DNA of 10,473 nt. Source: a virus. Taxonomy: Duplodnaviria > Heunggongvirae > Uroviricota > Caudoviricetes. The notes under the pieces were generated by a model, which searched no databases, was not told the DNA's origin, and was given only the letters and a program-made list of their open reading frames with translations. The stretch lies in the IMG/VR virus record IMGVR_UViG_2531839584_000010. One strand, given 5' to 3'. Within the stretch, counting starts at the first letter, position 1. Every line of letters begins with the position of its first letter. Made by a program: the position numbers and the translations under genes. This document shows, piece after piece, positions 8,939 to 10,473 of this stretch.

Positions 8939-9360
8939 ATGTTCCTGAAAACCGAATCATTTGAACATAACGGTGTGACCGTCACGCTTTCTGAACTGTC
9001 AGCCCTGCAGCGTATTGAGCATCTCGCCCTGATGAAACGGCAGGCAGAACAGGCGGAGTCAGACAGCAACCGGAAGTTTACTGTGGAAGACGCCATCAGA
9101 ACCGGCGCGTTTCTGGTGGCGATGTCCCTGTGGCATAACCATCCGAGAAGACAAAGCTGCCTTCCATGAATGAAGCCGTTAAACAGATTGAGCAGGAAGT
9201 GCTTACCACCTGGCCCACGGAGGCAATTTCTCATGCTGAAAACGTGGTGTACCGGCTGTCCGGTATGTATGAGTTTGTGGTGAATGATGCTCCTGAACAG
9301 ACAGAGGACGCCGGGCCTGCAGAGCCTGTTTCTGCGGGAAAGTGTTCGATGGTGAGCTGA
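8939..9360 (+). pseudogene. G: Tail assembly chaperone gpG, net single-base frame loss near 9140-9165
   Basis: ATG 8939 reads [69 protein letters not shown], then RRQSCLP-stop at 9169. The G C-terminus resumes in another frame in ORF 9166-9360 ([64 protein letters not shown]). Confidence 0.8.
9336..9342 (+). promoter_or_regulatory. -1 programmed ribosomal frameshift slippery heptamer G GGA AAG (G to G-T)
   Basis: GGGAAAG at 9336-9342 is phased as G|GGA|AAG in the G C-terminal frame. The -1 frame is open from 9342 to 9776 and encodes T-like sequence. This is the canonical lambda G/GT recoding arrangement. Confidence 0.8.
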
Positions 9361-9776
9361 GTTTTGCCCTGAAACTGGCGCGAGAGATGGGGCGACCCGA
9401 CTGGCGTGCCATGCTTGCCGGGATGTCATCCACGGAGTATGCCGACTGGCACCGCTTTTACAGTACCCATTATTTTCATGATGTTCTGCTGGATATGCAC
9501 TTTTCCGGGCTGACGTACACCGTGCTCAGCCTGTTTTTCAGCGATCCGGATATGCATCCGCTGGATTTCAGTCTGCTGAACCGGCGTGAGGCTGACGAAG
9601 AGCCTGAAGATGATGTGCTGATGCAGAAAGCGGCAGGGCTTGCCGGAGGCGTCCGCTTTGGCCCGGACGGGAATGAAGTTATCCCCGCTTCCCCGGATGT
9701 GGCGGACATGACGGAGGATGACGTAATGCTGATGACAGTATCAGAAGGGATCGCAGGAGGAGTCCGGTATGGCTGA
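9342..9776 (+). CDS. T: T-frame extension of the G-T tail assembly chaperone fusion (reached by -1 frameshift, not an independent gene), frame intact
   Basis: ORF 9342-9776 (.FDGELSFALKLAREMGRPDWRAMLAGMSSTEYADWHRFYSTHYFHDVLLDMHFSGLTYTVLSLFFSDPDMHPLDFSLLNRREADEEPEDDVLMQKAAGLAGGVRFGPDGNEVIPASPDVADMTEDDVMLMTVSEGIAGGVRYG). Stop TGA 9774-9776 overlaps the H start. Confidence 0.85.
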   Translation: MFDGELSFALKLAREMGRPDWRAMLAGMSSTEYADWHRFYSTHYFHDVLLDMHFSGLTYTVLSLFFSDPDMHPLDFSLLNRREADEEPEDDVLMQKAAGLAGGVRFGPDGNEVIPASPDVADMTEDDVMLMTVSEGIAGGVRYG

Positions 9777-10473
9777 ACCGGTAGGCGATCTGGTCGTTGA
9801 TTTGAGTCTGGATGCGGCCAGATTTGACGAGCAGATGGCCAGAGTCAGGCGTCATTTTTCCGGTACGGAAAGTGATGCGAAAAAAACAGCGGCAGTCGTT
9901 GAACAGTCGCTGAGCCGACAGGCGCTGGCTGCACAGAAAGCGGGGATTTCCGTCGGGCAGTACAAAGCCGCCATGCGTATGCTGCCTGCACAGTTCACCG
10001 ACGTGGCCACGCAGCTTGCAGGCGGGCAAAGTCCGTGGCTGATCCTGCTGCAACAGGGGGGGCAGGTTAAGGACTCCTTCGGCGGGATGATCCCCATGTT
10101 CAGGGGGCTTGCCGGTGCGTTCACCCTGCCGATGGTGGGGGCCACCTCGCTGGCGGTAGCGACCGGTGCGCTGGCGTATGCCTGGTATCAGGGCAACTCA
10201 ACCCTGTCCGATTTCAACAAAACGCTGGTCCTTTCCGGCAATCAGGCGGGACTGACGGCAGATCGTATGCTGGTCCTGTCCAGAGCCGGGCAGGCGGCAG
10301 GGCTGACGTTTAACCAGACCAGCGAGTCACTGACGGCGCTGGTGAATGCCGGTGTGCGTGGTGGTGAGCAGTTTGAGGCGATCAGCCAGAGTGTGGCGCG
10401 TTTCTCCTCTGCATCCGGCGTGGAGGTGGACAAGGTCGCTGAAGCCTTCGGGAAGCTGACCACAGACCCGACG
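9769..10473 (+). CDS. H: Tail tape measure protein gpH, N-terminal 235 codons (continues beyond the window)
   Basis: ATG 9769 is preceded by AGGAGGAG. The frame is open to the window end, 705 nt: MAEPVGDLVVDLSLDAARFDEQMARVRRHFSGTESDAKKTAAVVEQSLSRQALAAQKAGISVGQYKAAMRMLPAQFTDVATQLAGGQSPWLILLQQGGQVKDSFGGMIPMFRGLAGAFTLPMVGATSLAVATGALAYAWYQGNSTLSDFNKT... Confidence 0.9.
   Translation, partial: MAEPVGDLVVDLSLDAARFDEQMARVRRHFSGTESDAKKTAAVVEQSLSRQALAAQKAGISVGQYKAAMRMLPAQFTDVATQLAGGQSPWLILLQQGGQVKDSFGGMIPMFRGLAGAFTLPMVGATSLAVATGALAYAWYQGNSTLSDFNKTLVLSGNQAGLTADRMLVLSRAGQAAGLTFNQTSESLTALVNAGVRGGEQFEAISQSVARFSSASGVEVDKVAEAFGKLTTDPT

Follow-up and report, generated by a model that had tools for sequence, protein, structure and literature searches.

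The single-base break in gene G of the lambda-like module described here is present in the text of the draft contig that carries it. Judged from where the missing bases of that contig fall relative to the polymorphisms of related prophages, it is almost certainly an artefact of assembly. The window (the whole stretch of DNA analysed, 10,473 nucleotides in length) is an entire draft contig, APXC01000069.1 of assembly GCA_000356305.2, and the missing base in G is the last of 123 deletion events that are scattered along it. Very probably, the contig merges reads of two or more near-identical prophage modules, with the positions at which the copies disagree having been dropped from the consensus. 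Each of the real templates most likely has an intact 140-codon G, the slippery sequence G GGA AAG and an open T frame; the G/GT recoding unit is an ordinary one, the already known unit of phage lambda.

Gene G, which encodes a tail assembly chaperone, starts at its true initiation codon, ATG 8939-8941 (on the plus strand, as are all parts of the G/GT unit referred to below), and reads normally through codons 1-69 (8939-9145; MFLK...SLWHNHP), which cover positions 1-72 of the Phage_TAC_2 profile (PF06894). Thereafter the frame is lost: SLWHNHP is followed by RRQSCLP and by a stop codon at 9167-9169, for a total of 76 codons. The remainder of the gene, from the last two bases of codon 70 through codon 140 and the stop codon at 9358-9360 (9146-9360; Phage_TAC_2 profile 77-125), is shifted by one base and is open, in its own frame, from ATG 9166 to that stop codon (MNEAVKQ...SAGKCSMVS). 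When aligned with lambda (NC_001416) and with three close relatives, G lacks exactly one base, the first of codon 70, directly 3' of CATCCG, at the 9145/9146 junction. The original prediction, that the N- and C-terminal frames of G differ by a net single base and that neither G nor the G-T fusion can be made from the G start as written, is therefore correct for the deposited text. It had also allowed that lambda G might have the same frame relationship, in which case the frames would have been misread. Lambda G is one continuous 423-nt ORF (annotated at 9711-10133) and does not share the frame relationship of the window, so the frame reading stands. The G frame is likewise uninterrupted in all 12 relatives that were compared.

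The aligned column at the 9145/9146 junction is C (CAG, Gln) in lambda and in the prophage of E. coli ETEC-2264, and A (AAG, Lys) in phage phiSTEC1575-Stx2k and others. Apart from the missing base, 8939-9803 is identical to phiSTEC1575-Stx2k. As deposited, no uninterrupted G frame connects the start codon with the slippery site; restoring one base creates it. Re-inserting A yields a 140-residue G that is identical to the protein of 5 of the 12 comparison prophages and phages (L002, L003, L005, L007 and L009), and a simulated -1 slip on the restored gene yields a GT protein of 279 residues. Residues 1-125 of the latter match Phage_TAC_2 over profile positions 1-125 of 126 (E 6e-59), and residues 164-239 match Phage_tail_T (PF06223; E 6.5e-14). 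Thus, the expectation that a one-base repair would leave the G/GT unit whole is borne out.

The other elements of the unit were read correctly at the outset. The heptamer of the G-T programmed -1 ribosomal frameshift, GGGAAAG at 9336-9342, is phased G GGA AAG with the C-terminal frame of G as its zero frame; it ends 16 nt before the TGA at 9358 and is found at the equal position in 10 of 10 relatives examined and in lambda. The T frame, which is -1 relative to the C-terminal frame of G and shares its first bases with the 3' end of G, extends uninterrupted over 9342-9776 (stop codon 9774-9776; 144 codons in the ORF list) and has lost no bases. By analogy with lambda, T would have no product other than the C-terminal part of the G-T fusion. 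In lambda, standard decoding makes gpG, and a low-level -1 slip on G GGA AAG makes gpGT (PMC5009743, citing Levin et al. 1993), at a gpG:gpGT ratio of ~30:1 that is required for tail assembly (PMC5009743). Within gpGT, it is the G portion that binds tape measure protein H, and the T portion binds major tail protein V and recruits it (PMC5009743, citing Levin et al. 1993 and Xu et al. 2004, 2013, 2014). The window shares with lambda the V-G-T-H gene order, the Phage_TAC_2 and Phage_tail_T families, a slippery heptamer that is identical in sequence, position and phase, and a T ORF in the -1 frame; this agreement of gene order, protein families, heptamer and frames upholds the assignment to the lambda type of programmed frameshifting that was first made from the sequence alone. 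Only a few substitutions separate the two over a 443-nt stretch comprising G and short flanks, the restored protein reading KKTKLPS or QKTKLPS, according to the allele, where lambda has QKTQMPS, with a few other substitutions. The deposited text differs from lambda, in addition, by the absent base at codon 70 and by two more in the ribosome-binding region.

These two bases are missing from 8926-8938 (plus strand), after 8930 and after 8937, at 9 and 2 nt before the start codon of G: where relatives have CCGG[A/G]GAGTCAG[C/A]GATG, the window has CCGGGAGTCAGGATG. Matching any natural allele therefore requires that both be restored as well. All four of the deletions in 8900-9146 fall on polymorphic columns (A/C at 8909, A/G at 8930, C/A at 8937 and C/A at the 9145/9146 junction).

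An exact search with the 76-residue truncated G product identified the window as the whole of APXC01000069.1. The contig is short and stands alone, and its content is confined to a multi-copy prophage module for which E. coli genomes offer a median of 2 places and a maximum of 9. A short stand-alone contig holding nothing other than a multi-copy module is the usual appearance of a collapsed repeat. Its gene content is that of the lambda head-tail region: A, W, B, C/Nu3, D, E, FI, FII, Z, U, V, G, T and the start of H, with positions mapped from annotated relatives, and with the gene calls of the source contig and Pfam matches concurring. The chaperone unit is located between the genes for its presumptive partners in the V-G-T-H order: the major tail protein gene V (8204-8925, plus strand) lies upstream of G and is broken by 19 single-base deletions; H, for the tape measure protein (9769-10473, plus strand), is free of deletions, overlaps the end of T with its ATG at 9769, and runs past the end of the contig. 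The deposited text breaks the frames of A, W, B, C/Nu3, D, E, FI, FII and V (75-8925), with 3 to 31 deletion events per gene, which brings the number of frame-broken genes from A through G to ten or eleven. Deletions spare only Z (7226-7804), U (7801-8196), T and the start of H. In consequence of the breaks, the source contig is annotated with some two dozen short gene fragments, which have already entered public protein collections. We looked for a publication on assembly GCA_000356305.2 and found none.

The suspicion that the indel in G might be an error is supported, but the notion of a single isolated error is not. Every close relative has 10,607 bases where the window has 10,473. Relative to the best match, the ETEC-2264 prophage (L001), there are 123 deletion events, amounting to 134 bases and spanning 1561-9146, no insertions and 74 substitutions; against phiSTEC1575-Stx2k there are 120 deletion events (again 134 bases) and no insertions. 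An identical analysis of private deleted bases assigns 135 to the window and none to any of 10 relatives. The deletions are clustered (per 100-bp bin, the variance is 3.45 for a mean of 1.15), and four stretches, 1-1560, 3992-4709, 7113-8405 and 9146-10473, ~4.9 kb in total, are free of them. The window contains no large deletions and no IS elements. Private substitutions outside the deletion clusters number ~9; a MAFFT-based count gives 59, most of which reflect alignment slippage beside the clusters. The only patches that resemble real substitutions absent from the ten relatives compared are at 4852-4909 and 5375-5391, and these probably represent a mosaic contribution from a lineage outside that panel. 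One event, at 5170 in D, is the sole loss of more than 3 bases: CACCT is missing from the context GGA[CACCT]CCACC, at a site that is invariant in the panel, and may reflect slippage at a small repeat or an indel by which the templates differ.

The placement of the deletions is the most telling of their properties. Columns of the alignment that are deleted in the window vary among 10 relatives in 85 of 138 cases; the corresponding figure for retained columns is 3.9% (odds ratio 40, Fisher p 9e-80). When the comparison is widened to 12 relatives, 97 of the 123 events lie exactly on a polymorphic site, ~13 times the number due to chance: random placement within the deletion span puts 7.5 +/- 2.7 events on such sites, with a maximum of 17 in 2000 trials. 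In two regions, 5735-5830 and 8625-8720, successive gaps of the window stand over columns that vary among the relatives. The third codon position accounts for 72 of 114 genic single-base deletions (63%), and the alleles at dropped sites are related by transitions more often than by transversions (62 vs 24). Differences between the backbone and an alternative sequence are mostly dropped in segments that have deletions (16 of 18 in 1561-2520, compared with L003, and 27 of 32 in 5701-6450, compared with L004) and are never dropped in the deletion-free segments (0 of 31, 0 of 17, 0 of 26 and 0 of 43). Since the deletions fall overwhelmingly on sites that differ among prophages, they point to an artefact of consensus building or assembly and not to a mutation of G.

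There is a residue of events that does not conform. With the 12-sequence panel, 26 of the 123 are off variable sites, and 17 are still so with a tolerance of +/-1 nt: those at 1619, 1732, 1746, 1927, 1932, 2091, 2191, 2300, 2343, 2509 and 2685, in the 1-3 kb region, and those at 5128, 5329, 6131, 7025, 8412 and 8507. These 17 may mark private alleles of a second template that the panel does not sample, or they may be errors of a second kind.

The break in G itself lies on a natural C/A polymorphism that makes codon 70 Gln or Lys. Each of the two restored 101-nt alleles (beginning with CAG or AAG, and each continuing as AAGACAAAGCTGCC) has matches of 100% identity among complete E. coli genomes. 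One of these genomes, NZ_CP030768.1, carries both alleles, on separate prophages whose modules share 97.0% identity. A search of 5,426 complete E. coli genomes did not recover the deleted form, its nearest match there (99.0%) being the intact allele; the exact 41-nt pattern of the deleted form has no match in IMG/VR, in the GTDB representative genomes or in the JGI metagenomes. Five polymorphic sites directly 3' of the break (9153-9165) are retained in the window. For a two-template origin this is a constraint: the second template must therefore be of the type in which CAG is followed by AAGACAAAGCTGCC, and that type does exist in complete E. coli genomes. Farther along, the alleles of 9147-10473 alternate between those of the two ETEC-2264 copies, resembling copy 2 in 9153-9650, copy 1 in 9804-10158 and copy 2 again in 10239-10380; this alternation reflects either natural mosaicism or a chimeric majority-rule consensus.

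A merging of reads from separate templates, which we infer from the pattern of missing bases, would have worked as follows. The templates would be two (or more) nearly identical lambdoid head-tail modules, most simply prophages residing together in one E. coli genome. In the building of the consensus, their disagreements would have been dropped instead of being resolved, leaving single-base deletions at sites of natural polymorphism, of which the C/A first base of codon 70 would be one; the deletion-free stretches would be those in which the templates agree. How a mismatch might be turned into a gap can be pictured in two ways. An alignment may stagger the mismatch into two half-gap columns, both of which are then outvoted, and this would explain the total lack of insertions; alternatively, ambiguous or low-quality calls may have been stripped. 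The confinement of errors to places where copies differ, with error-free sequence where they agree, is shared with collapsed-repeat consensus errors in draft bacterial assemblies. These usually take the form of a chimeric majority-rule sequence or of ambiguity codes, in contrast to the window, from which positions have been removed to leave pure deletions. Dropping the discordant columns from pairs of reference sequences (including the two prophages of ETEC-2264 and those of 2017C-4173W12) does not reproduce the contig for any pair. The true templates are therefore different mosaics that have not been sampled, and the two-template model is statistical and not exact. In the intact templates, frameshifting would be expected to operate as it does in lambda, with gpG as the main product and a -1 slip of a few per cent providing gpGT.

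It has to be asked whether the breaks could be real, the window then representing a truly decayed, defective prophage with genuine single-base deletions, that in G included. Defective lambdoid prophages are common in E. coli (an IS-truncated copy in ETEC-2264 and a Qin-like A-to-G relic, both described below, are examples), and ten genes are frame-broken as written. We nevertheless consider decay to be highly improbable. Natural decay generates substitutions that far outnumber indels, and its indels include insertions as well as deletions, whereas here 123 deletions are accompanied by not one insertion and by only ~9 private substitutions outside the clusters, and the large deletions and IS elements that might also be looked for are missing. 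Mutation would have no reason to favour third codon positions or the polymorphic sites of other strains, and the G deletion is shared by none of the 5,426 complete E. coli genomes. Neither the mixed spectrum of a decayed pseudogene nor a placement of changes that is independent of polymorphism among relatives is seen. A more elaborate proposal would have the deletions made in vivo, by recombination between co-resident prophages of ~97% identity followed by aberrant repair that excises the mismatches of the heteroduplex. If true, this would be an undescribed mutational signature of homeologous recombination, silencing a prophage module together with its G gene, but we regard it as having a barely appreciable chance of being correct.

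An origin in the sequencing rather than in the merging of copies is also very unlikely, if somewhat less outlandish: random read-level or low-coverage errors from a deletion-prone chemistry, unrelated to any collapse of repeats, would account for clustered changes that are exclusively deletions, and the source is, after all, a draft whole-genome shotgun contig. Such errors would not produce a 13-fold excess over chance at polymorphic sites, nor would they be expected to spare the ~4.9 kb that is free of indels. The deletions also show no tie to sequence context: of the 116 single-base deletions, 83 affect bases with a run length of 1, compared with 56% of bases overall, which rules out sequencing error of the homopolymer type, and they are not enriched near the methylation motifs of Dam and Dcm (5 near GATC, with 3.5 expected, and 4 near CCWGG, with 2.4 expected). 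There is, finally, the thought that the break in G is real and tolerated, with function supplied either by a 64-residue ORF that begins at ATG 9166 and would have its own G-T frameshift, or by a compensating +1 ribosomal frameshift near 9146. The slippery site and the G stop codon both share the frame of ATG 9166, and the annotation of many genomes includes the identical 64-residue ORF as a gene; in those other genomes, this ORF is a deletion relic in a cryptic prophage. The original prediction had left room for an alternative in-frame start that would rescue G, and this internal Met is the only start that the C-terminal frame offers. It does not serve: no Shine-Dalgarno-like sequence precedes it, and its 64 residues cover only 49 C-terminal positions of the Phage_TAC_2 profile (77-125 of 126). 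Nothing points to a recoding signal at 9146. Moreover, V, E, B and other essential genes are broken as well, and no functional tail or head would therefore be possible in any case. A tolerated break is scarcely credible. Dropped disagreements between merged copies of the module thus remain the preferred explanation of the break in G and of the deletions that precede it.

The biological weight of these findings is small, what is at issue being a textbook lambda G/GT unit that is most likely intact in the real DNA. Their use is as a warning: before apparent 'broken recoding units' or 'pseudogenes' in short, repeat-only draft contigs are taken at face value, the sequence should be compared with relatives. 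The 123 events in APXC01000069.1 have split genes into spurious short ORFs that now reside in protein collections. A quick diagnostic for errors of the collapsed-repeat kind can be put together from the features encountered here: deletions only, located at sites that are polymorphic among relatives, in excess at third codon positions, and with error-free stretches between them.

Natural prophage relics that retain parts of the same unit provide a comparison. Many E. coli genomes harbor a Qin-like cryptic prophage (L015, 9366-10611; also L016-L018) in which a natural deletion of ~8.6 kb joins terminase gene A (position 844 of the ETEC-2264 prophage L001) to G (position 9432 of L001). Like the window, this relic keeps the 64-codon C-terminal ORF of G, the GGGAAAG heptamer and the T ORF without a functional N-terminal part of G; its neighbours are tail-fibre and invertase genes. 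The likeness ends there, the Qin-like relic being the product of a real deletion of ~8.6 kb that is common to many genomes, whereas the G gene of the window lacks one private base in a module that is otherwise complete. The second lambdoid copy of ETEC-2264 (L019, 8829-8835; NZ_CP023349.1, at ~1.779 Mb) is a remnant of another sort: transposase genes of IS3 and IS30 directly precede its starting point within V, and it retains intact G, T, H and distal tail genes.
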